From Chitinivibrionales bacterium (GTDB lineage: Bacteria; Fibrobacterota; Chitinivibrionia; Chitinivibrionales; FEN-1185), in the NCBI GenBank assembly GCA_035516255.1, contig DATJAL010000027.1, forward strand, positions 65,312 to 129,311: a stretch of 64,000 bases of DNA. The letters are read 5' to 3'. A program made the position numbers and the translations under genes. Positions 6,429-22,359 of this stretch are shown here, piece after piece. The notes under the pieces were generated by a model. That model worked only from the letters and a program-made list of their open reading frames with translations. It was not told where the DNA came from and did no database searches. The stretch's first letter is position 1; every line of letters begins with the position of its first letter.

Positions 6429-7151
6429 ATGAAACGCGCCCTGGTTTTTCTGCTCTCCGCATTGATCATTGCTCCCTGCCTCTGCTTCGCCGACAAAGGC
6501 CAGATTCCCATCGCGGTCAACGACCTGACGGGCGAAGGGGTCGAGGCGTCGGAGGCGCGCATCATCTCCGACCGGTTCAGGTCGGAGCTGATCAATGCCC
6601 AGATTTTCCGCGTCATGGAGCGCGGCGAGATGGAAACCATCCTCAAGGAACAGGGGTTCCAGCAGAGCGGCATGTGCAACGACAAATCCTGCATGGTCGA
6701 GATGGGACAGATCCTGGGCGTGAAGCAAATCTTCGCGGGCACCATCGGAAAAATCGGCGGGATGTACACGCTTTCCACGCGGATGATTGACGTCGCGACG
6801 GGCGAGGTCCGGTTCTCGGTCACCCTCGACTGCAAATGCGCCATCAGCGACGTGCTCACCAAGTCGGTCCCGTCCATCGCCCAGCAGATCGTTGAAAAGA
6901 CGAAAGCGGCCATGCAGGCCCCGGCCGCGGCCCAGCCCGCGCAGGCGGCTCCGGCCCCTGCCGCGGCGCCGCAGCCGCAGCAAGCGGCCCAGAAACCGGA
7001 AAAGAAAAAATCGCTGTTTACACAATGGTATTTCTGGGTGCCCGCCGCGGTAGTAGTGTGCGGCGGCGCAGCGGCCGCGTATGTCGTTTTTGAAAGAAAA
7101 AACTCTGAAGTTCCCGAACAGCAAACCGGAGGAGTGATGGTACAATGGTAA
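6429..7151 (+). CDS. CsgG/LpoB-like periplasmic lipoprotein with Pro/Ala-rich linker and C-terminal TM helix
   Basis: The track ORF starts at TTG 6402. The ATG at 6429 has AAGGAG 7 nt upstream and gives MKRALVFLLSALIIAPCLCFA (lipobox-like). Core ISDRFRSELINAQIFRVMERGEMETILKEQGFQQSGMC...GGMYTLSTRMIDVATGEV is a paralog of the 41285..42436 product. Its stop overlaps the next start (caATGGTAA). Confidence 0.7.
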   Translation: MKRALVFLLSALIIAPCLCFADKGQIPIAVNDLTGEGVEASEARIISDRFRSELINAQIFRVMERGEMETILKEQGFQQSGMCNDKSCMVEMGQILGVKQIFAGTIGKIGGMYTLSTRMIDVATGEVRFSVTLDCKCAISDVLTKSVPSIAQQIVEKTKAAMQAPAAAQPAQAAPAPAAAPQPQQAAQKPEKKKSLFTQWYFWVPAAVVVCGGAAAAYVVFERKNSEVPEQQTGGVMVQW

Positions 7152-10100
7152 CCAAAGTAAAGAGCCGTTTCAGCATCGTCGTTTCCGCCGCCCTGGCGTG
7201 CTTCCTCCTCCTGCTGTTCTGCGGCAGGGACTCACTGTTTAACAAACCGGAATCGAAGCCGTACGGCGAGGTGTACCCCGTGCTGCTGTTCAAGAAAGGC
7301 GCGTCGACCATTGCGGTTCCCCCGCAGGTAAAAAGCATCAGGATGCAGGTCATGGGTGCCGAGATAGACACCAGCATCACGGTCCCGGATTCGGCGCACA
7401 AGGCCCAAATCACGCGCGTTCCCGTCGGCGTGGTGGTGGTAACCGTCGAGGGGCTCGACAGCGCCGGCCAGGTCTTTGATTCGGGAAGCGTTTCGGTGAC
7501 GATCGAGGCCAACGTGGTAGCCCAGCCGCAGATTGAATTACTTTCCACCCACCCCATCGTTCTCACCTTCATCTCGCCCAAGAACAACGACACCCTGGCC
7601 AACACCTCGGCGACCCTGAGCGGCACGATCGACGCGGACTACGGCCTGATCACGTTTAAAATGGGCACTTCCGAAATTACCGTGACCGGCGACCAATGGT
7701 CGCGCAACGTGGACCTTGTAAGCGGCACGAACACGTTCGCCTTTGTCGCGGTTGACAACAAGGGAAACACCCTCAGGGACACGCTCACGCTTGTCAATTC
7801 CGCCAGCGCGCATGACGTTACCGGGCCGGTCATCGCGCTCCTGCAGCCGGCCGACAGCAGCAAGGTGCCCGTGACGCCGGTCACCATACTGGGGACGGCG
7901 ACCGATCCCTCGGGCGTGCTTGCAGTCCAGGTGAACAGGCAGACGGCTACGCTTTCGGGCTCGTCGTTCTCGATCAACCAAGACCTTGTCCCGGGAAAGA
8001 ACACCATCATCATCACGGCGATCGACAACAGCCCCTCGCAGAACAAATCGTCCGACACGTTTACCGTGACCCTCGACACCACGGTTAAGGACACCGTGGG
8101 TCCTGTCTTCACCGTTGCCACGCCGAGAAACGGCGACACCGTGGCGACCGCAACGGTCATGATATCGGGGACCACGGCGGACATCAGCGGTGTCGCCTCG
8201 CTGCTGGTGAACGGCGTTGCGGCGACGATCGTGAACAACACCTGGTCGGTCTCGGTTCCCGTGGCCGCCGGGCCGAACAAGCTCCTCATCACCGCGACCG
8301 ACGCATCGCCGCAGCACAACGTGTCCCGCGATTCCATCGCCATTGTCTACAACGCCGCGGCGCAGGACAAGACCCTGCCCTCGGTGGCCATCACCTCGCC
8401 GTCGATCAACACCGTGGTGAGCAATCCGCTCAACATCACCGTTACCGGGACGGCGTCGGATCCGGCTGGAATTGCATCTGTCAAGGTTAACGGTTTTTCT
8501 GCCGCCTACACGAGCGGCACCTGGAGCGCGGTGATCTCACTGTCGCATCCCGGCAGTAACGCGGTGTGGGCGGTCGCCACCGACGGCGCGGGCAACAAGG
8601 ATTCCACGAGCATCAACCTCATATACGATTCCACTGCGGCCGACGTGATCCCGCCCGCGATTACCCTTGTGTCGCATACGACCGGACAGACCGTATCGGT
8701 CTCGCCCGTGCTTATCCAGGTGACCGCCACCGACGCCAACGGCATCAACTGGGTCACCATCAACGGCGACACGGCCGTCCTCAATGCGGGCAAATACGAG
8801 AAATCAATCACGCTTGCAACCGGTGTGAACCAGATCAAGGTGCTGGCTCAGGACAAGAGCACGAACCGCAACATAGACACGCTCAAATTTACGCTTACCT
8901 ACGATCCCACCGCAGCCGACACGGTTCCGCCCAAAATAACGCTTGTCTCGCACACCAACAACCAGGTGGTCTCGTCGAGAAACGCTCTCATCCAGGTTAC
9001 TGCGACCGATGCCAACGGCATTGCGTGGGTCACCATCATGGGTGACACGGCGGTCCTCACCGCGGGCAACTACCAGCGGAACGAGGTTCTTGTCAACGGC
9101 ACGAACACCATAAAAGTGGTGGCACAGGACGCGAGCTCGAACCATAACAAAGACACGCTCGTTTTCACGCTCGTATGCGACACGACGGCCGCGGACAACA
9201 CGCCGCCGACCATAACCTTTGTCTCGCCCCAGCCGGGCCAGAAGCTTTCCGCGCAACCCGTGCTGGTCCAGGTGACGGTCTCGGACCAGAGCGGCGTGGC
9301 GCTGGTGACCATCGGGGGAGACACGGTCTCCTCGACAAACGCGAATTACCAGCATCCGGTGCATTTGACCCAGGGATCGAACACCATCACCGTAACCGCC
9401 CAGGACGCGAGCCCCAACCACAACAAGGCCCTGCAAAACCTGACCGTCACGTACGATTCCACACTTACGGATTCGACGCCGCCCAAAATCTCGCTGGTTT
9501 CCCTCGCCGATTCCCAGGTCATGTCGGTGAAGACGGTCACGGTCCGGCTTACGGCGACCGATGCGAACGGAATTTCCCTGGTCACGCTGAACGGCGACAC
9601 CCTGCAGCTAAGCAGCAATATGTACTCTGAGACCAGAACGCTGGCGCCCGGAGCCAACGCATTCAAGGCGTATGCAATCGACGCAAGCTCGAACCATAAC
9701 CGGGCCGTGCTGAATTTCACCCTGTTTTACGACTCAACGGCCGCGGACACCACGCCGCCGACCATCGCCCTTGCCTCGCCCGCGAGCGCGGTCAACGTGA
9801 GCACCGCAACCGTAAGCGCCACCATCACGGACGCAAGCGGCATTTCCCTGGTGACGATCAACGGCGTTACCGTTTCTCCGTCGGGCAGCAATTATTCATG
9901 GTCGATGCCCTGCACCGCCGGCACCAACCATATCCTCATCGTTGCAACCGACGCGAGCACCCGAAAAAACCAGGCAACGTTGCGGACGACCTTCACCTAC
10001 GACCCGCCGCCCGACGCCGCGGTGCTCGCAACGCCCACGATCTTCTCCTACAATAGCGTGCACCTGACCTGGTCGGTGAGCGCCGACAACGACTTCGCGT

Positions 10101-11977
10101 CGTACAAGGTCTATCATTCGCAGCAGCCGAACGTCTCCACAACAAGCACGCTCGACACCACCATCACCGATGTCTCGACGTCATACTGCACCGTAATCAA
10201 CCTGCAGCAGAACACCAAGTATTATTTCAAGGTTTTCACCGTTGACAAATTCCCCTCGACAACGCCAAGCAACGAGGTGAACGCCACCACCACGCAGGTC
10301 CCGCTGCCGATCGTCTACATCAGTTCGCCCAACCTGCAGCGGGATTCCAATCTTGTCAACAGCTCGCCCGTCGCCGTGTCGGGAACCGTGAGCACCCCGG
10401 CGACCGTCACAAGCATGTCGGCGCTGGTGAACGGCAACGCCGCCACCGTGAGCGGCACCTTCCCCAACTGGAACATTTCGGCGGCACTCAACGCCAACGT
10501 GTGGAACACCCTTCAAGTCAGCGCGACCGACAATTATTCAGGCACGGGGTCAAAAACATTCTGGCTCTTTTTGAAGCAGCCCCTCAACCAGCCGAACTAC
10601 GCGTCGGTGGACAGTTTCAACAACACCAACGTTTATTTGTCCTGGGCGCCCATCCAATACTGCACCAACTATACGATTTTCCGTTCGTCAATAAACAACA
10701 CCGGCCCCTGGACCATCGCCGCGCAAGGCCTTACCGGTCTCCACTATGCGGACACCGGGCTGACGCCGGGCACCCAGTACTGGTATGCGATGAAGGGATC
10801 CTATTCGTACCCGTCGGGCTTCGCCTCATCGGATTCCACGCCGCTGTCGTTGACCAATTATTCCCAAACCAAATTCTGGTTCCAGAAGCTTTACTTTCCG
10901 AACACGCCGGCATCCGAAGGCGCGAGCGTGGCCGCCGCCCAAAACGGTTATTTCGTATTCGGAACCATTCAGCCGCAGGCGGGCGGCCTGCACTTGCCTT
11001 TCTTCTGCAAACTCGACAGCATCGGAGACACCGTTTTCACCTATGCGTATTCGAGCGGGCTCTCCTGGTCCGCCGGCAAGATGGACGCCGCTGCCGACAA
11101 AAGCTTTGCGTATTGCGTGGGGTCCCTGTACAACGGCACGGTCTGGACGGCGCTCGTCATGAAGATGAGCGCCTCGGGAGGCGCGCTTTTCTCAAAAACA
11201 TATAACTGGGCGCAAGGCGTGCATGCGAACTGCGTCAGGGCATTGCCGGACGGAGGGTGCCTGGTGGGCGGTAAATCATCCAATGCAGGCGTTGACAATG
11301 TCTGCATTTTCAGGCTCGACGCATCCGGGACCCTTTTGTGGAGCAGATCATTCAACACGTACCAGACCGAAGCCTACGATCTTGTGGTGCTGGGCGACGG
11401 CACCGGGGCTGTGTATGCGGGACGTATCTGGAACTCCACCAGAATGGCCGCCGACATCGACCTGGGGAAAGTTTCCATGGCCGGCGACTCCCTGTGGGAA
11501 AAACGCATGCCGGCCACAAGCAGTTTCGACTGGTCCGCAGGTAGTATTATTCAGGCGTCGGATGGAAGCCTGGTGATCGCGGGAATGGCCCCGACGAGTT
11601 CCGGCGTGCCGCAAAACTACTTTTTGAAAACCGACGCGACTGGCGCGCAGGTGTGGTCAAATGTTTTTCCCGGGTATTCCACCGGCGCCGCCTCCCTTGC
11701 ATCGGTCAAGCAGACGTCGGACGGCGGTTACATAGCGGCCGGCTATGCCATGAACGTCGGCGGCCAACAGGCCTCTTTGATGAAATTGGCTTCCGATGGA
11801 AGTCAAACATGGCAGGTGAATTACGGACAATCCGGCGGCGATATTGGGCAATCGGTGGACATTGCCCCGGACGGCGGCTTTGTCGTATGCGGCACCAATG
11901 AAAGCAACGGCAACGGCGACAAACTATGGCTGATAAAGACCGATAAGAACGGCGGCTGCGTGATGCCCGGGCCGTAG
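7145..11977 (+). CDS. Giant secreted/surface protein: about 9-10 tandem Ig-like domains, 2 FN3 domains, C-terminal beta-propeller-like repeats
   Basis: 1610 aa with an N-terminal hydrophobic signal (FSIVVSAALACFLLLLFCG). Roughly 92-aa units repeat (..TPPxITLVSxxxxQ..VTATDANGI..VTINGDT...GxNxIxVxAxDxSxNxN..). FN3-like segments YKVYHSQQP...YYFKVFTVD and YTIFRSS...QYWYAMKG. The tail repeats D-G-G-[YF]-[IV]...G...D.WL.K.D..G. Confidence 0.85.
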   Translation: MVTKVKSRFSIVVSAALACFLLLLFCGRDSLFNKPESKPYGEVYPVLLFKKGASTIAVPPQVKSIRMQVMGAEIDTSITVPDSAHKAQITRVPVGVVVVTVEGLDSAGQVFDSGSVSVTIEANVVAQPQIELLSTHPIVLTFISPKNNDTLANTSATLSGTIDADYGLITFKMGTSEITVTGDQWSRNVDLVSGTNTFAFVAVDNKGNTLRDTLTLVNSASAHDVTGPVIALLQPADSSKVPVTPVTILGTATDPSGVLAVQVNRQTATLSGSSFSINQDLVPGKNTIIITAIDNSPSQNKSSDTFTVTLDTTVKDTVGPVFTVATPRNGDTVATATVMISGTTADISGVASLLVNGVAATIVNNTWSVSVPVAAGPNKLLITATDASPQHNVSRDSIAIVYNAAAQDKTLPSVAITSPSINTVVSNPLNITVTGTASDPAGIASVKVNGFSAAYTSGTWSAVISLSHPGSNAVWAVATDGAGNKDSTSINLIYDSTAADVIPPAITLVSHTTGQTVSVSPVLIQVTATDANGINWVTINGDTAVLNAGKYEKSITLATGVNQIKVLAQDKSTNRNIDTLKFTLTYDPTAADTVPPKITLVSHTNNQVVSSRNALIQVTATDANGIAWVTIMGDTAVLTAGNYQRNEVLVNGTNTIKVVAQDASSNHNKDTLVFTLVCDTTAADNTPPTITFVSPQPGQKLSAQPVLVQVTVSDQSGVALVTIGGDTVSSTNANYQHPVHLTQGSNTITVTAQDASPNHNKALQNLTVTYDSTLTDSTPPKISLVSLADSQVMSVKTVTVRLTATDANGISLVTLNGDTLQLSSNMYSETRTLAPGANAFKAYAIDASSNHNRAVLNFTLFYDSTAADTTPPTIALASPASAVNVSTATVSATITDASGISLVTINGVTVSPSGSNYSWSMPCTAGTNHILIVATDASTRKNQATLRTTFTYDPPPDAAVLATPTIFSYNSVHLTWSVSADNDFASYKVYHSQQPNVSTTSTLDTTITDVSTSYCTVINLQQNTKYYFKVFTVDKFPSTTPSNEVNATTTQVPLPIVYISSPNLQRDSNLVNSSPVAVSGTVSTPATVTSMSALVNGNAATVSGTFPNWNISAALNANVWNTLQVSATDNYSGTGSKTFWLFLKQPLNQPNYASVDSFNNTNVYLSWAPIQYCTNYTIFRSSINNTGPWTIAAQGLTGLHYADTGLTPGTQYWYAMKGSYSYPSGFASSDSTPLSLTNYSQTKFWFQKLYFPNTPASEGASVAAAQNGYFVFGTIQPQAGGLHLPFFCKLDSIGDTVFTYAYSSGLSWSAGKMDAAADKSFAYCVGSLYNGTVWTALVMKMSASGGALFSKTYNWAQGVHANCVRALPDGGCLVGGKSSNAGVDNVCIFRLDASGTLLWSRSFNTYQTEAYDLVVLGDGTGAVYAGRIWNSTRMAADIDLGKVSMAGDSLWEKRMPATSSFDWSAGSIIQASDGSLVIAGMAPTSSGVPQNYFLKTDATGAQVWSNVFPGYSTGAASLASVKQTSDGGYIAAGYAMNVGGQQASLMKLASDGSQTWQVNYGQSGGDIGQSVDIAPDGGFVVCGTNESNGNGDKLWLIKTDKNGGCVMPGP
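7553..10005 (+). repeat. Coding tandem array of Ig-like domain units (about 276-285 bp period)
   Basis: The five best-conserved units (about 8625-10005) begin D[ST]TAAD..PP.I.L.S. Four more divergent units lie upstream. Protein-domain repeats, not CRISPR. Confidence 0.7.
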
Positions 11978-12037: not shown

Positions 12038-12235
12038 ATTACGTTTTCAAGTGGAAAATGCGAAAAGAACAACCTCCCTTGGAAACCCCATGATTTCTCA
12101 TGCAGACAAATACTGTTTTTAATTGCTTCCATTGATAAATTGTACTAAATTCCATACGGTAGCTTTATGGAAATCGCCCGGTCCGCACCGCTCTCGCAAT
12201 CCGCAGTGTTGAATATTCGATGTAAGGAGTGTTGT

Positions 12236-14047
12236 ATGAAACCAGCCGCATTACTGCTTCCGGTTTTGCTTTTTTCCTTCCTGTTCCTGCAGTGTTCCGG
12301 AAACGGGGAAAACGCCAAGAAACCGCCCCAGCCTTCCCAGCTTTCGGTGACCCAGCCAACGGCCAACGGCGCAACGCTCGTGTGGAAGCCGGGCGCAGAC
12401 AGCCTTAATATCACCAGCTACCGGCTGGTGTTCTCGCACCAGAGCGGCGTTGACAGCCTCGACACCGTTGTTGTGGCCACGGCCGGGACGGGCCGCAGCT
12501 TCACCCTGTGCAACCTGCTGCCGGGCTCCACGCTTTATTTCAAGGTGTACGGCGTGGATGAAAACGGGCTGATGACCGGCTCCAACGAGGTACCGGTCAC
12601 CATCCCCGACGCATCGCCGCACATCACCGTGTCTGCGCTCTCGTCCGGAAGTCAGATCGACAACGACAACGACGGCTATGCGAGCTCATACACGCTGTCC
12701 TATACGCTGCAGAACACGCGCCAGGACACGGGCACCGTCATCTGCCGGGTGTATTACCTTCCGTCGGCGGCGACGGCGTGGACGGCCTTTCACGCCGACA
12801 CCGTCTCCTTTACAGCCGCGAAAGCCGAGACCACGCTTTCGCACATCACCGGCGCCGACCTGCGCGACAGCGTCGCGGTCCGCGCATCGGTCTTCAACCA
12901 GGCCGGCACGCTCCTTTCTTCCCGGATCCTCACCGGCATCCGCGAGGAGTCCAACGCCGACGACGGCATCGTGCGGCAGCAGTTCACCATCAAGATGTCC
13001 CTCAAGGACAGCGTCGATTTCAACAAAAACGGGTACCTGAGCAATTATTCCATTCTGTACGACGTCGATGTGTCGAGCGGCACCAGCCAGGTGGTCGTGC
13101 GGCTTTACAGCCGGCAAAACGGCACCACGGCATGGAAACAGTTCCTCCGCGACACCATTACCGTGACCGGCGTCAGCACGTCGGACCGCGTCTCCGAAAC
13201 CATAGGGGCGGACCAGCACGAGACGGTGGACATCCTCGCACGCGTCACGGACCTTTCCGGCCGCCCGGTGGCGTCCGATTCGATCCTCGGCGTCAGGGAG
13301 GAGAGCCGGGACGACGACCGCGTCTACCGCCTCGCCTATGCGGTCATCGACAGCGTTTACGACGGCGACCAGGACCACTACTACAGCCAGTACCGCCTGA
13401 AATTCGGGGCCGACATGAGCTGGGGCAGCGACTCGGCGTATGCGGTGGTCATCCATCACGGGCCCGCGCTTGCGACGGACTCGATCGTGTACCAGAGCCC
13501 GCTCTTCCCCATCAGCAATTCGCTGCCCGCGGAGACGAACCCGCATTACGTGATGCTGACCGGGCTCGAAGCCGGTGCCACCGCCACGATCACCCTCAAG
13601 GTGTTCCGCGCGGGCGGCATCCTGATCGACACGGCGGTGTTCTCCGTGCCGGATGAAACGCCGGCGGACGACGTCCCGGTGATCTTCACCGCAACCATGG
13701 CGCTTACCGCACATGTCGATGGCAACAACAACGGCTGTTACAGCTCGTGGACACTCAACTCATGCGTGTCGGTGAACACGGGCGGCACGCAGACCGTCAC
13801 CGCCACCTTTTATTACCGGCTCAGCACCGGCACCCAGTGGTTCCCGCTTAACAACACGGCAAACGGCACCAGCACCATTTCCTACACGGTTTCTCCCGGC
13901 GCCGCCGTCTGCCATCCGTTTACCGGCACGTACAATACCGGTCCGTGCCGCACCTTTGACGTTCAAATGACGGTCACCAAGGGCGGTTCCGTGGTGGCGC
14001 AAACCTATTATTACGGACTGAAGGACGAATACTTTATTTATGACTGA
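12236..14047 (+). CDS. Lipoprotein with N-terminal FN3 domain and four ~117-aa repeats, each opening with a DxDxDG-like loop
   Basis: The ATG at 12236 has AAGGAG 7 nt upstream and gives MKPAALLLPVLLFSFLFLQCSG (lipobox LQC); the track start at 12167 is less likely. Repeats open with DNDNDGYASSY, DFNKNGYLSNY, DGDQDHYYSQY and DGNNNGCYSSW at about 352-nt spacing. Confidence 0.75.
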   Translation: MKPAALLLPVLLFSFLFLQCSGNGENAKKPPQPSQLSVTQPTANGATLVWKPGADSLNITSYRLVFSHQSGVDSLDTVVVATAGTGRSFTLCNLLPGSTLYFKVYGVDENGLMTGSNEVPVTIPDASPHITVSALSSGSQIDNDNDGYASSYTLSYTLQNTRQDTGTVICRVYYLPSAATAWTAFHADTVSFTAAKAETTLSHITGADLRDSVAVRASVFNQAGTLLSSRILTGIREESNADDGIVRQQFTIKMSLKDSVDFNKNGYLSNYSILYDVDVSSGTSQVVVRLYSRQNGTTAWKQFLRDTITVTGVSTSDRVSETIGADQHETVDILARVTDLSGRPVASDSILGVREESRDDDRVYRLAYAVIDSVYDGDQDHYYSQYRLKFGADMSWGSDSAYAVVIHHGPALATDSIVYQSPLFPISNSLPAETNPHYVMLTGLEAGATATITLKVFRAGGILIDTAVFSVPDETPADDVPVIFTATMALTAHVDGNNNGCYSSWTLNSCVSVNTGGTQTVTATFYYRLSTGTQWFPLNNTANGTSTISYTVSPGAAVCHPFTGTYNTGPCRTFDVQMTVTKGGSVVAQTYYYGLKDEYFIYD

Positions 14048-14070: not shown

Positions 14071-15483
14071 ATGCCTGAGTCGGCCTATAACATTTCCCGG
14101 AAAAACGGCGGAGCATTGACGCTCACGTCCGAATGTCACTGCGTCCGTGTTCCGCACAAGCCGGACCAATGGCTGCTGTATTTCCCGCTCAAGTCGCTGT
14201 TCTTTAAAGTAAACAAGACCGCCGCGGAAGTCATCGGGCGGCTCAAGGCGGGCAGAAACGGTTTTTCCCCGAAAGAAAGATCGTTTATCTCCCTGCTGAA
14301 AGGCGCCGGCCTGGTTAACGGGGCAGGCGACAAAACGCCCTACACCGGCCTTCAGGTCTCCAAACCCGCGCCGTACCGCACCCAACTGCTGCTCACCCAT
14401 GACTGTTCCCTTGCCTGCCTGTACTGCTACAGCGGCGCCATACGCAGCCGCAGCCGCATGTCCTTCGCGCATGCCCGCGCCGCGGTGGATCTCGTGATCC
14501 GCAATGCATTGGCGGCTCATCAGCGCAGCATTGACATCGGGTTCCACGGCGGCGGCGAGCCGACCGCGAACTGGAAGGTGCTTACAAAAACGGTCGAGTA
14601 TGCCCGCAGGCGGTGCGCGGAAGTAAAGCTGGGATGCAGCTTCTCGCTGTGCACCAACATGCTGCTCCCTGTTGTCAAGGCCGACTGGATCGCGCGCAAC
14701 ATCGGCAGCGTCACCATATCCATCGACGGCACGCCCGCGATCCAGAACCGGCAGCGGCCCACCAGGAGCGGCGGGCCTTCCTACACGGTCGTGGCCAGGG
14801 CCATCGACCGGCTCACGCGGCTGAAAAAGCCGTATGGATTCCGCGTGACCGTCACGGGCATCTCGGAAAACAAGATTGAAGCGATATACCGCCACCTCAC
14901 CACACGGTTCAGGCCCAACAGCATCTGCTTCGAGCCGCTCTTCGTGTGCGGAAAGCGGCCCACCGAATCCTGCCGCCGCCCGGGCGCCGGCGCGTTTATC
15001 AACGGCATCAAGGCGGTTTCGCGGCTTGCGCAAAAGCAAAGGATCGGCATCCAGTATTCGGGCGGCCGGCTCGCCTACATGGGCAATGCCTTTTGCGGCG
15101 CGGCGGGCGACAATTTTTTCATCACCCCGCAGGGCGACGTCACGTCGTGCCTCGAGGTCTCGTCGCGTCGCGACAAGCGCTCGCGCCTGTTCTTCTACGG
15201 TTCATTCAATGCCAAAAAGAAATCCTTTGATTTCAACTTGGCCAAGTACCGGCGGCTCAAGTCGCTGCGCATGGAGCGGTTCGAGCCGTGCTCGGCGTGC
15301 TTCGCGCGCTGGCACTGCGCCGGCGACTGCCTGGCCAAGAAACCCGATTTTGACAATATCACAAAACTCGCCAACGATTACCGTTGCGGCATCAACCGCG
15401 AGCTCACGCTCCACCAGCTGCTGCGGCAGCTTGATTTTAAGGAACGGAGCGTGCAAAGGAGGCACTGTGGAGAAAAGAAGTAG
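14071..15483 (+). CDS. Radical SAM/SPASM-domain peptide/protein-modifying enzyme
   Basis: 470 aa. CSLACLYC (CX3CX2C) followed by GGGEPTANW. Full SPASM pattern: CGAAGDNFFITPQGDVTSC (CX13GX4C), CSACFARWHCAGDC (CX2CX5CX3C), then a later Cys (YRCG). The N-terminal ~100 aa (LFFKVNKTAAEVIGRLKAG...) resembles a PqqD/RRE-type leader-binding segment. Confidence 0.9.
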   Translation: MPESAYNISRKNGGALTLTSECHCVRVPHKPDQWLLYFPLKSLFFKVNKTAAEVIGRLKAGRNGFSPKERSFISLLKGAGLVNGAGDKTPYTGLQVSKPAPYRTQLLLTHDCSLACLYCYSGAIRSRSRMSFAHARAAVDLVIRNALAAHQRSIDIGFHGGGEPTANWKVLTKTVEYARRRCAEVKLGCSFSLCTNMLLPVVKADWIARNIGSVTISIDGTPAIQNRQRPTRSGGPSYTVVARAIDRLTRLKKPYGFRVTVTGISENKIEAIYRHLTTRFRPNSICFEPLFVCGKRPTESCRRPGAGAFINGIKAVSRLAQKQRIGIQYSGGRLAYMGNAFCGAAGDNFFITPQGDVTSCLEVSSRRDKRSRLFFYGSFNAKKKSFDFNLAKYRRLKSLRMERFEPCSACFARWHCAGDCLAKKPDFDNITKLANDYRCGINRELTLHQLLRQLDFKERSVQRRHCGEKK

Positions 15484-16063
15484 AAAACAACCCGAAGGTC
15501 CGAAGATCCTCGCCGTGAGCGATCTTTTCCATCTTGAAACCCGCCAGCGTCTCGGACTCGTCAACGCCGCGGAAGTCACCAGGCGGCGCGCGTTCCTCAA
15601 GAAAATGCTCGGCGGCGCGGCCCTGCTTGCCTTTCCGTCAATCGGCACTCCCATGATCACCGGCCCGTCCGGCGTGCGCACTATCGCCTCGACAAAGGAC
15701 GTTCCGGGCCAGACCCTCTGCTGCACCTGCGACACCGACCTCCAATGCAAGTGCCAGACCCACGTCCCCTGCACCTGCCAGTCCGATGCGCCCGCCTGCA
15801 CGTGCGACGCGGACATGGGGTGCAAGTGCCAGGCATACGCCGGCACGTGCGCGAGCTACGGCTCGTTCCAGCCGTGCAGCTGCAACGCCTACAGCGCGGC
15901 GGTCTGCTCGGCCCACAGCACCTGCACGTGCCAGAACCAGTGCGCGTGCCAGAACTACAACCCGTGCGCCTGCGATCCGCAATGCACCTGCCAGAGCAAT
16001 TGCGGCTGCGACGGCCAATGCATGTGCGAGATCCAGTGCGCGTGCCAGTTGTACGGGGTTTGA
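15467..16063 (+). CDS. Tat-signal, extremely Cys-rich CxC[Q/D/N/E]-repeat protein (putative substrate/precursor)
   Basis: This is the in-frame 3' part of track ORF 14876..16063, whose first ~590 nt merely overlap the rSAM gene out of frame. GTG at 15467 lies 4 nt after AGGAGG (15457-15462). Twin-arginine motif TRRRAFLKK (RRR at 15581-15589), then h-region MLGGAALLAF. The last 114 aa (15719-16060) hold 29 Cys in 13 CxC units. Alternative starts: GTG 15515, or ATG 15605, which would delete the RR motif. Confidence 0.7.
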   Translation: MEKRSRKQPEGPKILAVSDLFHLETRQRLGLVNAAEVTRRRAFLKKMLGGAALLAFPSIGTPMITGPSGVRTIASTKDVPGQTLCCTCDTDLQCKCQTHVPCTCQSDAPACTCDADMGCKCQAYAGTCASYGSFQPCSCNAYSAAVCSAHSTCTCQNQCACQNYNPCACDPQCTCQSNCGCDGQCMCEIQCACQLYGV

Positions 16064-16094: not shown

Positions 16095-16246
16095 GGGCGT
16101 TCCCCCACCTCGCACACCCGTGCGAGGTGGGGTCGGTTCTCCTTCCGGTCTCGCCTTCGGCTCGGGCTGCCACGGCCCCTATATGCCTGACGGCGAGGGC
16201 CGGGCAGCACCGCACTCCAGCGCGGCCTCCAGTCGCCCCTAACGCG
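16095..16246 (+). repeat. Core intergenic repeat element (forward copy)
   Basis: GGGCGTTCC (16095-16103), perfect 12-bp hairpin CCCACCTCGCAC/GTGCGAGGTGGG (16104-16131), then TCGGTTCTCCTTCCGGTCTCGCCTTCGGCTCGGGCTGCCACGG...GGCCTCCAGTCGCCCCTAACGCG. Lies 32 nt after the Cys-rich gene stop. Confidence 0.8.
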
Positions 16247-16354: not shown

Positions 16355-17185
16355 ATGAATTTAAAAAAGGCATATTACATTTCCTGCTCGCGGCGCACCG
16401 ATGTTCCACGGTTCTTTCTCAATGAATTTTTTGACGCGTGGGAAAAGGGCGAAATCTCCTACGACGCCGGGTACGGACGGTCCTACACGGTTTCGCTCAA
16501 ACCGCGGGACGTGCTGGGATACGTTTTCTGGTCAAAAGATTTTTCCGCGTTTATCAAGCACGAACTGTTTGGTGAACTGTGGAAAATAAACAACGCCGTG
16601 TTTCATTACACCATTAATAATTGTCCTGAGCTTGAGCCCAATGTCGCGCCGCTTCACGTACGCCTGCAGACGCTTGATCGCCTTTGCGAACTTGCGGGAC
16701 CGGAAAGGGTGTCGTGGCGGTTTGATCCGATTTGCAAATACCGGAGAAAAGACGGAAGTGCCGTCACGAATTTTCCGTCCTTCTATGACATTCTGTCCCA
16801 TGTCAAGAAATCGGGAGTGAAACGCTGCTACTTTTCGTTCATGAGCCATTATTCAAAATTGAAGAAAAGGGATGTGCTGTTCGGTGATTTTGATGAAAAG
16901 GAAAGAACCGCGCTGGGAAAAGAATTGCTGGATGCGGCTTCACAGGCGGGAATGGTACTGTATAATTGCTGCAATCCGGAAGTCCTGCGGCTTGTTCCGG
17001 GAATCAGACAGGCGCATTGCATTGACGATGAAATTCTAAAGGAGACGGACAGGTTCGGCGTTCACCCGGATTTAGGCCTCAAGCCCACGCGGGAAGGATG
17101 CGGGTGTTTTGAAAGCAGGGACGTGGGGTCATATTTGCAGAAATGTCCGCACAGGTGCTTATACTGTTATGCGAATCCGGGGTAA
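16355..17185 (+). CDS. DUF1848-family protein with C-terminal radical-SAM-like Cys cluster
   Basis: 276 aa. N-terminal YYISCSRRTDVPRFF and extreme C-terminal CPHRCLYCYANPG (CX3CX2C), as described for Pfam DUF1848. GC is visibly lower than in neighbouring genes. Confidence 0.75.
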   Translation: MNLKKAYYISCSRRTDVPRFFLNEFFDAWEKGEISYDAGYGRSYTVSLKPRDVLGYVFWSKDFSAFIKHELFGELWKINNAVFHYTINNCPELEPNVAPLHVRLQTLDRLCELAGPERVSWRFDPICKYRRKDGSAVTNFPSFYDILSHVKKSGVKRCYFSFMSHYSKLKKRDVLFGDFDEKERTALGKELLDAASQAGMVLYNCCNPEVLRLVPGIRQAHCIDDEILKETDRFGVHPDLGLKPTREGCGCFESRDVGSYLQKCPHRCLYCYANPG

Positions 17186-17613: not shown

Positions 17614-20247
17614 ATGCAAAATCGTGTTCCGTCCGCATTTGCGTCCGTCATCAGTTCAACTCTTCTTCTTTTTCTTTTCACAGTCCAACCTGTAAATGCC
17701 ACGAAACTCGCCGAGGTTCGGGTCGTTGACAAGGATTATCTCGAGGTGTATTTCAAGGACGGCGACGTCTTTTTCGTTGACAACGGAAAGGGCCCCAGCG
17801 CGTTTCTCAACCTTGCCCACGACACGACCAACGAGATCCTCACCTACTACGGCACCGGACTCAACACCGCCACAGCGGTCACGACCGCCTCGTGGAAGCT
17901 CGCCTCAGCCGACGACGCGGCGTATGGGACCGCGGGACTCGCGCCCGTAAACTGCTTTCGCAAATCCAAGCTCAACGGCATGTACGAGGGGAGCTGGTCG
18001 GGCAGCGATTTCGTCTATTCGCACACCATGGAACACCATATTTACCTCAAGCTGCCGTCTTCCCTGGTGCAGGGCAAGACCTATACGCTGCAGATCGCCG
18101 CGGGCACCAACACCGATTCGACGTCCGCGACATTCACGTACGATATTTACAGCAGCCGCTCCGAGGCGGTGCATGTGAACCTGTCGGGGTATTCGGCGGC
18201 GCCGAACGTCAAGGCCGCCGACCTGTACGCCTGGCTCGGCGACGGCGGGGCCCGGGACTACTCCGGATTCGTCGGGAACAAAGTCTATATTGTCAACACC
18301 TCCACCGGAACGCCCCAGCAGACCGGCACGGTGTCGCTGTGGAAAACGAGCGCGGCGGAGGCGCAGGGCTACAACATGACCGGCTCGAACGTGTGGAAGG
18401 TTGATTTCACCGGCTTCACCACGCCGGGCACCTACCGTCTGGCGGTTGATGGCGTCGGGTGCAGCCAGGACTTCACCATCGCCGACACCATCTATCACGA
18501 CCCGTTCATGGTCGCGGTCCGCGGCTATTTTTACATGCGCATCGGCCAGGACAGCGCCGGCATACGGCCCATTCCGCGGCGGCCGCTTTACATTCCGGGA
18601 AAAGACCCGGCCAACACCGTGGTGTACATCACCACCATGCAGCCCACCGATCCCGCTTGGACCACCTTTACCGGCGGCGACGTGTGGGACAATCCCGACG
18701 CCTGGGCGCCGTATAAAAACGGCAAGACCAATGCGAACGCCTACGGCGGCCACGCCGACGCGGCCGACTGGGACCGGAACATGAACCACATCTCCAATAT
18801 TTACGACATGCTGTTCCCCTACATCCTCACGGGCGGGGCGCTTTCGGACGACAACCTGGGCATCGCCGAAAGCCGCAACGGCATCCCGGACATCATTGAC
18901 GAAGCGAGAAACGAGGTCGATTTCTGGCTGCGGCTGCGCGACGGACAGGCGTATTCGTACGGACTCACCAATCCGGACGGCAACAACGTGCTTTACCAGG
19001 CGGGAACCAACGCTATAGCAGCGTGGGCAGCGGCCGCGGGCAGCGCCATGCTCGCCGAGGCGTTCCGCATCGCGGGAAACACCGCGCTTTCAAACGCCTA
19101 CCGCGATTCCGCCGTCAACGCGTACAATTTCGCCGGCACGCTCGCCGACCAGATGCTCGACTTCAAGCAGAACGTGGGCGAAAGCACGGTGCGCGGCAGG
19201 GACCTCAAGATGACGGCCGCCGCCTACCTGTACAACCTTACCGGCACCACTGCCTACGAGGACGAGGTCAACGCCGAAAGCAAGGCCGCGTCCAGCGCCA
19301 CCGCGGCGATCATCGACCCGAGCAACTTCAACCAAATCTGGGCCACGGCAGGCTATCTCAAGACGAACAGGACCGTGCATTACCAGACGCTCTACAGCAA
19401 CATGGTGTCGTCGGTGGTGAGCGACGCGAAGAACAGCGAGACCAACTACAGCGGCTCGCGTCCGTCAAGACGCTGTACCGACAACAACACCGAGTATTTC
19501 CACACCGAAACGCACGTGCACCGCACGATCCTGGCCCATGCGGTCGCCGCGACCCAGGCCGACAAGGACCTGTTCCTCAACGCGCTCATTTGCGAGGCGG
19601 ATTGGAACCTGGGCCGCAACCCGGCAAACCTGATCCAGATGACCACCGCGTCCACGCCCCTGTCGAGCAAGCGCAGCGTGGACGCCATGTACATCTCGGG
19701 CGGCAATGACGGCACGCCGGGCCAGCACCCGGGCATGACGCCCTATTTCAACACCGACGACTGGGGCGGCAACATGATCATGGGAAATCCGAGCTGGATG
19801 TGCGCGTTCAGCTACCCGGCCAACAACACGTGGCCCAAGGGCGAGGTCTATTTCAACACGCGCTGGGTGTACGCCCATTCGGAGTTCACGCCGCAGCAGA
19901 CCATGCGGGGGAAGATCGCGCTGTACGGATACCTGTACGGGATAAGGAATGGGAACAACCCGGTGAGGCAGAACCCTGGCGTGATTGACAATTTAAGAAA
20001 CTCGGCGCAGCTGTTCCGCATCGAACGCCTGGCCAACGGGAACTTCGCGTTGACCTTCACCGGCGCGACGGAGGCCGGCAAGCGGCTGCAGCTTTACAAT
20101 TGCACAGGCAGGTTGATAAAGTCAATCATGCTCGCAGGCAATCGCGCGAGTGTCCGGCTGGAGACGGCCACCATGGATAAAGGGATTTATTTCCTGAAGG
20201 TCGAGGCGGAGGGAAGGAAGGTCTGTAAAATGATAGCTGTATTTTAA
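17614..20247 (+). CDS. GH9-like glycoside hydrolase with N-terminal Ig-like (CelD_N-type) domain and T9SS C-terminal sorting domain
   Basis: 877 aa with AAGGGGGG upstream and a signal peptide. Ig-like module ends GTYRLAVDGVGCSQDFTIADTIY. GGHADAADWDRN resembles the GH9 GGWxDAGD motif. The C-terminus GIYFLKVEAEGRKVCKMIAVF is a typical T9SS CTD. Family call is by eye only. Confidence 0.7.
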   Translation: MQNRVPSAFASVISSTLLLFLFTVQPVNATKLAEVRVVDKDYLEVYFKDGDVFFVDNGKGPSAFLNLAHDTTNEILTYYGTGLNTATAVTTASWKLASADDAAYGTAGLAPVNCFRKSKLNGMYEGSWSGSDFVYSHTMEHHIYLKLPSSLVQGKTYTLQIAAGTNTDSTSATFTYDIYSSRSEAVHVNLSGYSAAPNVKAADLYAWLGDGGARDYSGFVGNKVYIVNTSTGTPQQTGTVSLWKTSAAEAQGYNMTGSNVWKVDFTGFTTPGTYRLAVDGVGCSQDFTIADTIYHDPFMVAVRGYFYMRIGQDSAGIRPIPRRPLYIPGKDPANTVVYITTMQPTDPAWTTFTGGDVWDNPDAWAPYKNGKTNANAYGGHADAADWDRNMNHISNIYDMLFPYILTGGALSDDNLGIAESRNGIPDIIDEARNEVDFWLRLRDGQAYSYGLTNPDGNNVLYQAGTNAIAAWAAAAGSAMLAEAFRIAGNTALSNAYRDSAVNAYNFAGTLADQMLDFKQNVGESTVRGRDLKMTAAAYLYNLTGTTAYEDEVNAESKAASSATAAIIDPSNFNQIWATAGYLKTNRTVHYQTLYSNMVSSVVSDAKNSETNYSGSRPSRRCTDNNTEYFHTETHVHRTILAHAVAATQADKDLFLNALICEADWNLGRNPANLIQMTTASTPLSSKRSVDAMYISGGNDGTPGQHPGMTPYFNTDDWGGNMIMGNPSWMCAFSYPANNTWPKGEVYFNTRWVYAHSEFTPQQTMRGKIALYGYLYGIRNGNNPVRQNPGVIDNLRNSAQLFRIERLANGNFALTFTGATEAGKRLQLYNCTGRLIKSIMLAGNRASVRLETATMDKGIYFLKVEAEGRKVCKMIAVF

Positions 20248-21285: not shown

Positions 21286-22359
21286 ATGGACAAGAAAATG
21301 CAAGATTGGATCGTAAAGGGGAAAGAAGTTTTTGTTGGACTTGATGATGCGAAGAAGACGTGGCGTGTATGCGTACGTTCTGAAAAGATGGCAGTTCACG
21401 AAAGCAGTATGCCTGCCAACTACGACGTGTTGCGTGCCTATTTAAGACGCCGATATCCGGAGTGTACGATCAAGGTGATGTATGAGGCGGGATTCAGGGG
21501 CTTTAACCTGTACGACCGTTTGAGTGAAGATGGGATTGAGTGTGTCGTGTTGCCACCACACTTGATGTTGGAAGAGAAGGTAAACCGAGTAAAGACGGAT
21601 AGACGGGACGCATGGCGATTGGCGAAGATGCTTGAAGGCGAAGAGCATCTTCGCGGATGTCATGTACCTGATAAGGAACGGCGAGAGGACCGTCAGGCGT
21701 GCCGGACGCTGAATGCGGTGGAGAAGGAGATCAAGTCGACACGCAACCGGATTAGAAAGTTGCTGCAGTATCACGGTATCGAGACGGCGATACCGGAGGA
21801 GAAAGCATGGGGAAAGAGTGAATTTCGGAGCGTTGAGGAATTGTCGGTAGGTGTAGTGCTGCGGAAGCCGATCAAGGTGCTACTTTCACTTTTAGAGAAT
21901 TTGTGGACATATCAAATTGAGTTGCGTAAGGAGCTACTAGCATTAAGTAAGAATCCGCGATACCAGAGGGCATTTGCAATAGCAAGAGGTCTTCCTGGGA
22001 TAGGATGGCTGACGGCCATACGGCTGGTGCTGGAGCTTGGGGAAGATTTTACGAGATTCAGCACCGGCAAGTCGCTAGCAAATTTTCTTGGATTGACAGG
22101 AGGTGAACATTCTTCAGGGGAGACGGAACACAAAGGGAGAATAACCGGCCAGGGGCCGACGTTTGTCCGATCGTGGATGATAGAAAGCGCATGGGTAAGC
22201 ATCCGAAAGGACCCAGTATTGCGTGAGAAATTCGAAAAGGTGAGGAGAAACTCGGGGAGTAAGAAGAAGGCTATTGTTGCGGTGGCACGCAAGCTTGCAG
22301 TAAGGCTGTATGCGTGTATGGTTATGAATCAAGAATATCAAATAGGTCTTGTTGCGTAG
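21286..22359 (+). CDS. IS110-family (DEDD/RuvC-like) transposase
   Basis: 357 aa. VFVGLDDAKKTW (first D), VMYEAGFRGFNL, KTDRRDAWRLAKML, then the C-terminal Transposase_20-type LPGIGWLTAIRLVLELGEDFTRFSTGKSLANFLGLTGGEHSSGE...KGRITGQGPTFVRSWMIESAW. Confidence 0.93.
   Translation: MDKKMQDWIVKGKEVFVGLDDAKKTWRVCVRSEKMAVHESSMPANYDVLRAYLRRRYPECTIKVMYEAGFRGFNLYDRLSEDGIECVVLPPHLMLEEKVNRVKTDRRDAWRLAKMLEGEEHLRGCHVPDKERREDRQACRTLNAVEKEIKSTRNRIRKLLQYHGIETAIPEEKAWGKSEFRSVEELSVGVVLRKPIKVLLSLLENLWTYQIELRKELLALSKNPRYQRAFAIARGLPGIGWLTAIRLVLELGEDFTRFSTGKSLANFLGLTGGEHSSGETEHKGRITGQGPTFVRSWMIESAWVSIRKDPVLREKFEKVRRNSGSKKKAIVAVARKLAVRLYACMVMNQEYQIGLVA

Follow-up and report, generated by a model that had tools for sequence, protein, structure and literature searches.

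Genes at the Locus

In the 64,000-nucleotide stretch of DNA that was analyzed (the window), a gene for a radical-SAM (rSAM) enzyme is followed directly by a gene for a Cys-repeat protein (Table 1). A 395-aa ORF at 14876-16063 does exist in the ORF list, but it is not the gene; its first 591 nt are out-of-frame with the rSAM gene and read as an Arg/Ser/Ala-rich shadow. As the preliminary description had proposed, a real gene of 198 codons lies inside this chimeric ORF. Direct reading confirmed an AGGAGG Shine-Dalgarno sequence 4 nt before its GTG start at 15467, which itself lies 17 nt ahead of the rSAM stop codon. Four homologs (P0001-P0004, 54-99% identity) start at the same position and keep the frame and every Cys, with indels that are multiples of 3, and the JGI and NCBI annotations both give the same 198-aa protein with the same start (hypothetical protein HUI92191.1). 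Comparison with an 80%-identical homolog gave a dN/dS of 0.18 for the whole gene and of 0.11 for its Cys-rich portion. A frame open by chance might be suspected in a GC-rich region where several ORFs overlap on both strands; this explanation is refuted by the shared start of the homologs, by the dN/dS values and the indel pattern, and by the 27 relatives found among 1.84 billion representative proteins. Moreover, this frame is the sole one open across all three homologous DNAs compared. One further match, a eukaryote-like CLCDRYWG repeat protein (P0140), was compositional and was discarded as a relative, and a metagenome scan with a 10-sequence alignment returned only 4 loci.

Translational coupling to the rSAM gene, which had been proposed from the position of the Shine-Dalgarno sequence, holds in part. 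The adjacency of the two genes is conserved, but the overlap varies: the precursor starts 58 nt beyond the rSAM stop in loci L001-L003, and on the P0004 contig the overlap is 4 nt; strict coupling is thus not conserved. Homologs of the rSAM protein align up to its residue 462-470.

Table 1. Features of the Cys-repeat locus, with positions in the window.
Feature	Position	Strand	Basis
626-aa fn3/choice-of-anchor-H protein, lipoprotein-type signal	12167..14047	+	Upstream; syntenic in L001-L003
Radical-SAM/SPASM peptide maturase, 470 aa, RRE-like N-domain	14071..15483	+	Pfam, motifs, AF2, fold match
Shine-Dalgarno AGGAGG	15457..15462	+	Within the end of the rSAM gene, 4 nt before GTG; read directly
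Cys-repeat precursor gene, 198 aa plus stop, GTG start	15467..16063	+	Homolog starts, dN/dS, existing annotation HUI92191.1
Leader motif EGPKILAVSDLFHLETRQRLGLV, residues 10-32; proposed RRE docking site	15494..15562	+	Conservation in 26 members
Putative twin-arginine signal T38-RRRAFLKK-46 with h-region M47-G60 (MLGGAALLAFPSIG)	15578..15646	+	Motif fit, conservation
Cys-rich core, residues 85-198	15719..16060	+	13 CxC[Q/D/N/E], dN/dS 0.11
GC-rich hairpin, 13-bp, after the stop codon	16103..16132	+	MFE -37.7 kcal/mol, z = -4.8

The Radical-SAM Maturase

The rSAM protein matches the Pfam families Radical_SAM (50.8 bits against a cut-off of 29.5) and Fer4_12. Its CX3CX2C motif (C112/C116/C119) is invariant in 38 homologs, as are the residues C342-x12-G355-x4-C360, C407-x2-C410-x5-C416-x3-C420, and C439, which conform to the seven-Cys motif (CX9-15GX4C ... 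CX2CX5CX3C ... C) by which a SPASM domain was recognized; the Pfam PF13186 profile gave no match to the protein. The best NCBIfam matches are the nif11, PapB, SCIFF, and QhpD maturases, all far below the equivalog cut-offs (PapB 111.4 bits against 340, SCIFF 109.8 against 425, and QhpD 107.1 against 453), with CefB at 70 against 600 and anSME at 66 against 349. Since it reaches the cut-off of no curated maturase family, homology is no basis on which to assign its reaction.

The AF2 model of the maturase (pLDDT 89.6) begins with a three-strand, two-helix domain, predicted at pLDDT >90, in which strands 23-26, 33-38, and 43-48 are followed by helices 49-59 and 67-78. As modeled, this N-domain corresponds to a PqqD-like RRE and is a predicted leader binder. 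The nearest PDB sequence is CteB (E 4e-21), and CteB is likewise the nearest fold in Foldseek (5why/5wgg; TM 0.69/0.77), where the alignment of the 470-residue query covers 451-465 columns and thereby the greater part of either chain. CteB is a thioether-forming ranthipeptide maturase; anSME is also found among the structural neighbors.

Leader and Twin-Arginine Signal of the Precursor

From its N-terminus, the Cys-repeat protein consists of a leader (PKILAVSDLFHL..QRLGL), an RRxFLK motif with a hydrophobic stretch, and the CxC[E/Q/D] core; in some relatives, Ig-like or WD40 domains are placed between signal and core. In the leader, P12 and D19 are invariant among 26 clade members, while I14, L20, L23, and R28 are conserved in at least 90%. 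The core of this motif, P-[KRQE]-[IV]-[LFY], also occurs in most of the signal-less precursors that adjoin related rSAMs. Such conservation suggests that leader residues ~10-32 dock on the RRE of the maturase.

The residues T38-R-R-R-A-F-L-K-K fit the pattern S/T-R-R-x-F-L-K and are directly followed by the sole hydrophobic stretch of the 198-aa protein (residues 47-61), with an h-region of 14 residues and a mean KD of 1.6. The twin-arginine motif noted in the preliminary description is therefore present and conserved, as R40 is invariant and R41 and L44 reach at least 90% in the 26 relatives. Most of the 26 clade members have the RRxFLK motif, the h-region, and a lipobox Cys. At the lipobox position, the window protein has T61, its homologs P0002-P0004 have T or S, and most of the other 22 read ...G-C; neither an AxA site nor a lipobox occurs in the subclade of the window protein. 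The TIGR01409 Tat model leaves the window protein unmatched even at E <= 10 and registers 8 of the 26 clade members, its cut-off of 16.7 bits being reached by P0126 (20.3) and P0132 (16.7). By its twin-arginine motif, the protein is a putative Tat substrate.

The Cys-Rich Core

A recount gave exactly the composition reported in the preliminary description: the last 114 aa contain 29 Cys (25.4%) and 13 CxC motifs, partly in period 6, which divide into 7 CxCQ, 4 CxCD, 1 CxCN, and 1 CxCE. The core ends with the clade-wide tail CxCE[IV]QCxCQLY and includes 5 Tyr, 1 Phe, and 2 His. Shuffled cores contain a mean of 7.1 CxC motifs and reach 13 in 416 of 100,000 shuffles; for CxC[QDNE], the mean is 1.6 and 13 was reached in 0 of 100,000. 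Across the clade, E/Q/D/N follows CxC in 120 of 126 cases (95%). The sister clades have Val, Asn, or His after CxC, often Val or His, and the family as a whole hence does not adhere to an E/Q/D acceptor. AF2 (with a 5-sequence alignment) returned no confident fold for the Cys-repeat peptide (pLDDT 36), as would be expected for an enzyme substrate or for a peptide that depends on cross-links.

Conservation of the Maturase-Precursor Pair

The rSAM gene lies directly upstream of the Cys-repeat gene in the window and in its relatives (L001-L003, the P0004 contig, L004-L010, L029, and L084-L087), and all homologous loci with enough upstream sequence show an RRE-rSAM-SPASM maturase directly before the Cys-repeat gene. 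When genome loci were retrieved through the rSAM, a CxC-rich ORF was present in the fetched flanks of 67 of 80, usually adjacent. A scan of 185,579 species genomes matched the maturase family in 231, spread over many phyla, and its members are nearly always found beside CxC-repeat peptides. None of the 22 signal-bearing loci has a U32 peptidase, a TPR protein, a B12-rSAM, or a stand-alone PqqD. Among 19 loci of a signal-less "..PVH" clade, 17 have the U32 peptidase, 17 the TPR protein, 16 the B12-rSAM, and 13 the stand-alone PqqD. The separate PqqD-like protein, which sister clades have in place of the RRE domain, scores slightly under the PF05402 cut-off (21.8 bits). The only constant across loci is the rSAM-peptide pair; other neighbors vary. 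With an adjacent precursor, a conserved leader, and a variable, putatively modifiable core, the two genes have the appearance of a maturase-precursor pair.

No Pfam or NCBIfam family was matched by the peptide or its relatives at E <= 0.01, and the distant rSAMs likewise gave none. Weak matches to MSCRAMM proteins were artefacts of Ser/Asp-repeat composition, and a single "invert_tail" match falls within a signal peptide. A literature search, which covered papers outside subscription-only journals, found no description of the Cys-repeat/maturase family. The Cys-repeat protein thus belongs to a widespread family that has no curated model and, in the literature covered, no published description.

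Comparison with Known Systems

Like the SCIFF/CteB and PapA/PapB (freyrasin) ranthipeptide systems, the window locus has a gene for an RRE + rSAM + SPASM maturase beside one for a Cys-rich precursor. PapB links Cys to the C-beta of Asp or the C-gamma of Glu, forming a single small thioether ring at each of the repeated Cys...Asp/Glu motifs, and Cys-Xn-Asp spacers of n = 0-6 are tolerated (PMC9413430). In contrast to these systems, the window maturase scores far below the equivalog cut-offs, its substrate has a core of 114 aa with 13 CxC[E/Q/D/N] motifs and a Tat signal between leader and core, and the system is without a dedicated protease or transporter; its relatives are predicted to modify the tails of 30-50 kDa proteins.

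A second point of reference is QhpD, which is among the best NCBIfam matches given above. QhpD is an rSAM/SPASM enzyme that introduces Cys-to-Asp/Glu methylene thioethers into a Cys-rich polypeptide destined for the periplasm. Its substrate QhpC, the gamma subunit of quinohemoprotein amine dehydrogenase, is first cleaved by a subtilisin-like protease, then leaves the cytoplasm through an ABC transporter of its own, and finally forms part of the enzyme. The window protein, on the other hand, carries a Tat signal motif, and the annotated part of the window, which comprises the operon and the sequence directly next to it, holds no Qhp genes. Modification in the cytoplasm ahead of export is also known from anSME/AtsB, an rSAM/SPASM enzyme that targets one residue, Cys or Ser, in signal-bearing sulfatases bound for secretion. 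Unlike the window maturase, anSME has no RRE or leader, and its product is a lone formylglycine within a folded enzyme.

A parallel in precursor design exists with the DAG-RiPPs and bufferins, whose precursors have a signal peptide, often with a lipobox. These are modified in the cytoplasm and then processed and localized by the general lipoprotein/secretion machinery (Lgt, LspA, and Lnt in the case of DybA), and some of the substrates are proteins of >30 kDa that are modified C-terminally (PMC13056109). They differ from the window family in their enzyme, which is an MNIO (DUF692) instead of an rSAM/SPASM protein, in a short C-terminal recognition motif instead of a conserved N-terminal leader, and, for DAG-RiPPs, in a lipobox Cys that is missing from the window protein. 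There is no mention of radical SAM, Tat, or twin-arginine in that paper (PMC13056109).

Proposed Mechanism and Alternative Explanations

The reading preferred here, with a probability of roughly 0.6, is that the product of the Cys-repeat gene is a RiPP-like precursor, made on the ribosome, modified by the radical-SAM enzyme, and exported as a Cys-repeat protein. The precursor would be translated directly after its maturase, whose N-terminal RRE would dock on leader residues ~10-32, and in the cytoplasm the rSAM/SPASM enzyme would modify the C-terminal CxC[E/Q/D/N] repeats. The likeliest chemistry is the formation of thioether bridges from Cys-S to Glu/Gln C-gamma or Asp/Asn C-beta, since by analogy the E/Q/D/N residues after CxC are acceptor types of QhpD and PapB. 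To our knowledge, Gln has no characterized precedent as a thioether acceptor, and about half of the candidate acceptors in the window protein are Gln. The modified, non-threadable product could then leave through Tat by means of the RRxFLK signal between leader and core, and a general signal peptidase could cut off leader and signal together, probably SPase I near SIG60|T61 in this subclade; most close relatives have a lipobox in its place. Neither a dedicated protease nor a dedicated transporter would be needed, and the mature protein of ~138 aa would act in the envelope, where it might bind metal or serve as a rigid, cross-linked module.

A wider proposal can be put forward only tentatively, namely that the family forms an undescribed class whose RiPP leader is part of the n-region in a Tat signal, often one of the Tat-lipoprotein type. 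Binding of the maturase beside the RR would delay export until cross-linking is done, in the manner of Tat proofreading chaperones, and the signal peptidase would double as leader protease. CxC[E/Q/D] would then be a portable thioether-stapled, possibly metal-binding tail for small peptides, Ig-like domains, and WD40 propellers across many phyla.

The exported protein might also be modified by the rSAM with another chemistry (alpha-carbon sactionine, C-C links, or Cys oxidation) and have a metal or redox role like the signal-bearing MNIO metallophores (bufferins). All of the architectural evidence for the thioether reading serves this one equally well; moreover, V/N/H after CxC in the sister clades speaks against a single acceptor rule, the maturase is under all equivalog cut-offs, and anSME, which oxidizes Cys/Ser, is a structural neighbor. 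Nonetheless, the 95% of E/Q/D/N after CxC in the clade calls for an explanation and the nearest structure is that of a thioether synthase, CteB, so that a different chemistry appears unlikely, if still the strongest competitor to thioether formation.

The preliminary description had offered the alternative of a periplasmic, metallothionein-like metal or cluster binder, exported in loaded form by Tat and with or without rSAM modification. On this view the Cys would stay free thiolates and take up Cu/Zn/Cd or a cluster before export from the cytoplasm, with the rSAM irrelevant or accessory. The protein does share with metallothioneins and Csp1 a very high Cys content (here 25%) and CxC motifs, which in its core stand at period 6; the CxCxxx spacing is that of plant type-1 metallothioneins and would suit metal binding if all Cys were free thiols, and AF2 predicts no fold without ligands. 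Cofactor-loaded proteins travel by Tat, and among its substrates is a Cys-rich metal store, the copper storage protein Csp1. However, Csp1 is a four-helix bundle, whereas the core here has no predicted fold. Metallothioneins are small and Cys-rich (15-30%, in CxC/CxxC clusters) with few aromatic residues; the Cys and CxC content of the core agrees with this, while 5 Tyr, 1 Phe, and 2 His in 114 aa would be unusual. The protein is not similar to metallothioneins or any other family (Pfam/NCBIfam at E <= 0.01; NCBIfam to E = 10), and almost every CxC is followed by E/Q/D. It differs from metallothioneins and Csp1 by its obligate rSAM partner, an RRE-bearing, CteB-like maturase in every locus with enough flank, and by its leader, which recurs in RiPP-type precursors that are signal-less and accompanied by genes for PqqD, B12-rSAM, and peptidase. 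Because of this maturase pairing, the shared leader, the E/Q/D/N residues after CxC, and the lack of a metallothionein family, the rSAM partnership defines the system and is not optional. "Metallothionein" is probably the wrong frame, and a metal binder independent of the rSAM is improbable; the product may still bind metal.

Less probable again is a disulfide-rich structural or adhesive envelope protein whose Cys oxidize after export while the rSAM acts elsewhere. Relatives that join the tail to Ig-like/WD40 domains and lipoprotein signals resemble surface proteins, and neighboring genes in the window encode large ones; but the conserved signal motif is of the Tat, not the Sec, type, the rSAM-peptide pair is the one element that all loci share, and the leader motif recurs in small RiPP-type precursors. 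Such a protein is therefore considered very improbable.

Significance

If the RiPP-like reading is correct, radical-SAM RiPP logic would extend to exported proteins, with a widespread maturase family whose target has escaped the Pfam and NCBIfam models. The precursor would be modular, with a leader, a Tat or lipoprotein signal, an optional folded passenger, and a Cys-repeat core, and would parallel, with an rSAM enzyme, the MNIO lipoprotein-RiPP hybrids that were described recently. The loci could do without proteases and transporters because Tat and signal peptidase would be borrowed, and the use of Tat would be explained by the inability of a cross-linked product to pass through Sec. The CxC[E/Q/D] repeat would be a new multi-site thioether substrate, in which Gln might be a novel acceptor, and also a candidate for a metal-binding module of the envelope.

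Neighboring Elements

The 626-aa gene upstream of the maturase is syntenic in L001-L003 (47% identity), and its position is taken by unrelated genes in L004 and in the Bacteroidales loci. It was rejected as a family-wide partner, since synteny is confined to the nearest subclade and it is unrelated to the Bacteroidales neighbor; its membership in the system is uncertain. A downstream DUF1848 gene was likewise rejected, as it has no synteny in relatives. Genes of the window that neighbor the Cys-repeat locus encode large surface proteins. After the Cys-repeat gene, a terminator scan called no classical terminator; the hairpin located there went uncalled because it has no T-run, and it probably marks the end of the operon or stabilizes the transcript.

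The Cys-Repeat Gene and Its Start

The 395-aa open reading frame in the longest-ORF track is chimeric, as the preliminary description had proposed: its first 591 nt are another frame of the upstream radical SAM (rSAM) gene, with a translation rich in Arg, Ser, and Ala, and alignments of rSAM homologs extend to the last residues of the enzyme. The start assigned to the Cys-repeat gene, GTG 15467, also holds, with AGGAGG 4 nt before it, the rSAM stop codon 17 nt after it, and a product of 198 aa. The real gene noticed in that description is confirmed, and it is "hidden" only in the longest-ORF track, because JGI and NCBI already call the identical 198-aa protein (HUI92191.1, a hypothetical protein from a Chitinivibrionales (Fibrobacterota) MAG). 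Frame, start position, and every Cys are kept in four homologs with 54–99% identity. Relative to an 80%-identical homolog, DNA indels are multiples of three, and dN/dS is 0.18 over the whole gene, 0.11 for the Cys-rich part, and 0.33 for the first 84 residues. Starting translation internally, at M47, would drop a region under selection that includes the invariant P12, D19, and R40. The reported Cys counts are exact: 29 of the last 114 aa are Cys, with 13 CxC (7 CxCQ, 4 CxCD, 1 CxCN, and 1 CxCE). In 100,000 composition-preserving shuffles of this core, CxC had a mean of 7.1 and occurred at least 13 times in 416, while CxC[QDNE] had a mean of 1.6 and reached 13 in none.

Features of the Cys-repeat gene region (window positions)
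Feature	Position	Strand	Remark
1610-aa secreted protein	7145-11977	+	eight Glucodextran_B-type repeats, Big_7, fn3, C-terminal beta-propeller-like region
626-aa fn3/choice-of-anchor-H protein	12167-14047	+	24 nt 5' of rSAM gene
rSAM gene	14071-15483	+	470 aa
Chimeric track ORF	14876-16063	+	395 aa
Cys-repeat gene	15467-16063	+	198 aa
Perfect 13-bp GC-rich hairpin	16103-16132	+	40 nt 3' of Cys-repeat stop
DUF1848 protein	16355-17185	+	just 3' of Cys-repeat gene; no synteny in relatives
CelD_N protein	17614-20247	+	T9SS sorting tail
IS110-family transposase	21286-22359	+	
CHASE2-adenylate/guanylate cyclase	23107-26025	-	

The Upstream Enzyme and the Gene Pair

According to sequence and structure predictions, the upstream neighbor is a peptide maturase. 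It has CX3CX2C at C112/C116/C119 and a complete seven-Cys SPASM pattern that is invariant in 38 homologs. Its best NCBIfam matches are all RiPP maturases (nif11, PapB, SCIFF, QhpD, DynA, CefB, and CcpM), scoring a quarter to a third of the curated cut-off, or lower, and it thus belongs to no described equivalog. The closest solved sequence is CteB (E 4e-21, alignment starting at residue 47), the SCIFF ranthipeptide thioether synthase. The AF2 model (pLDDT 89.6) places an N-terminal three-strand, two-helix domain ahead of a TIM-like core, and Foldseek with this model returned CteB first (451–465 columns, TM 0.69/0.77), followed by TigE, ChlB, anSME, and SuiB. The predicted architecture is RRE, rSAM, and SPASM.

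The rSAM and Cys-repeat genes form a conserved unit, while the other neighbors vary. An rSAM homolog lies directly 5' of the Cys-repeat gene in every locus with enough flank (fetched loci L001-3, L084, L085-87, L004-L010, and L029, and the contig of the relative P0004). Screening one genome per species located rSAM relatives at 231 loci; of the 80 rSAM loci fetched, 67 have a CxC-rich ORF, which in most cases follows the rSAM gene directly. The 626-aa upstream protein, in which a lipoprotein-type signal (…FLFLQC), a single fn3 domain, and three matches to choice-of-anchor-H were recognized, is syntenic in the nearest subclade only (47% identity in L001); its position is taken by a histidine kinase in L004 and by an unrelated 455-aa gene in Bacteroidales. 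The hairpin (MFE -37.7 kcal/mol, z -4.8) was not called by the terminator scan because it has no T-run.

Leader, Signal, and Core

Only 27 relatives turned up among 1.84 billion representatives when these were searched with a profile of the five closest sequences, and they match chiefly via the N-terminus. P0140 (887 aa, eukaryote-like, dozens of CLCDRYWG repeats) scored E 2e-5 against the profile and was judged a compositional match, not a relative. The aligned relatives share a basic start; the motif P-[EKR]-I-[LIF]-x-A-x-D-L-x-H-L-N-x-x-Q-R-L-x-L-L-G; the motif W-x-x-R-R-x-F-L-K-x-L-L-G-x-A-A, then a short hydrophobic run; and, last, CxC[E/Q/D] repeats ending C-x-C-E-V-Q-C-G-C-Q-L-Y-R-I. 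A lipobox (...G-C) follows the hydrophobic run in most of them, and many have an Ig-like passenger domain after the signal. The window protein matches this order (PKILAVSDLFHLETRQRLGL; TRRRAFLKK; MLGGAALLAFPSIG; CMCEIQCACQLYGV), the lipobox Cys being replaced by Thr or Ser in it and its three closest relatives.

The leader core P-[KRQE]-[IV]-[LFY] is also present in most signal-less precursors beside distant rSAM-family members, against a chance of about 5% per sequence (estimated from typical residue frequencies), which suggests that the conserved N-terminal motif behaves as an enzyme-recognition leader rather than belonging to the export signal. In other branches of the family, the leader-RRxFLK-lipobox module stands ahead of WD40 propellers or short cores ending YWYPN. 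With the curated Tat-signal model, 8 of the 26 clade members give a match, and two of these reach the cut-off. The window protein gives none; its predicted Tat targeting, already proposed in the preliminary description, is based on the RRxFLK-type motif and family conservation. None of the 22 loci with an RR-signal precursor has a U32 peptidase, TPR protein, B12-rSAM, or stand-alone PqqD, vs. 17, 17, 16, and 13, respectively, of the 19 loci of the signal-less "...CRCAPVH" clade. This supports borrowed export and processing, being the pattern expected if signal-bearing precursors rely on Tat and a signal peptidase for export and leader removal.

Probable Identity and Putative Chemistry

We read the Cys-repeat protein as a Tat-exported, rSAM-modified RiPP-like protein, with a probability of roughly 0.6. 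The preliminary interpretation is retained for gene, start, and Tat-type signal, but not for "metallothionein" as the primary frame. Metallothionein domains have a Cys density and CxCxxx spacing similar to the core, and Csp1 is a Tat-exported, Cys-rich metal store; however, neither Pfam nor NCBIfam gave a family match, and an rSAM partnership and a leader are unexpected for a metallothionein. The metallothionein reading is probably secondary, and a partly cross-linked product might bind metal.

In the window clade, the residue after CxC is E, Q, D, or N in 120 of 126 cases (E 49, Q 45, D 22, N 4). QhpD forms Cys-to-Asp/Glu methylene thioethers. PapB connects Cys with Asp C-beta or Glu C-gamma, and its accepted substrates include Cys-Xn-Asp with n = 0-6 (PMC9413430). 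Taken with the CteB-like fold, these residues and both precedents make a series of small thioether staples the most economical guess for the rSAM product, albeit a tentative one with the odds somewhat against it. We know of no precedent for Gln as a thioether acceptor, Val, Asn, or His often follows CxC in the sister clades, and the enzyme is the equivalog of no characterized maturase. AF2 did not find the core to fold (pLDDT 36), as fits a substrate that relies on cross-links or ligands for its structure.

The system's way of working resembles ranthipeptide and QhpC-type maturation, but it differs in repeat type, size, its embedded Tat signal, and the lack of dedicated processing genes. NCBIfam release 20 and Pfam hold no model for the peptide or the rSAM clade, and full-text searches of openly accessible literature turned up no description of the peptide-rSAM family; in a paper on lipoprotein-RiPP hybrids (MNIO/DAG-RiPP), radical SAM and Tat appear nowhere in the text (PMC13056109).

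Related Loci

In one sister clade (L015, L030 (Desulfobacter curvatus DSM 3379), L023, L025, and ~15 others), small precursors have CxCxxV repeats and end ...CRCAPVH; with a PqqD-like protein, TPR protein, B12-binding rSAM, and one or two U32 peptidases on their flanks, they make up a full RiPP-type cluster without a curated model. In a further sister clade (L046, L059, L060, L067, L069, and L076), precursors end ...YWYP[NC], and the loci encode two to three paralogous rSAM/SPASM enzymes as well as an 800-aa PQQ-like beta-propeller/TPR protein bearing a T9SS sorting tail. As many as seven rSAM/SPASM paralogs surround one Cys-repeat precursor in L053, L062, L063, and L078, together with a conserved ~100-aa protein (cluster 10) lacking a Pfam match. 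WD40-repeat (390-520 aa) and Ig-like-domain (265-380 aa) proteins with a C-terminal CxC tail adjoin the same rSAM family in L052, L073, L074, L078, and L079 and in L005-L010; most have the N-terminal leader and Tat-lipobox module (L074 has neither), and the enzyme apparently modifies the tails of these full-size proteins.
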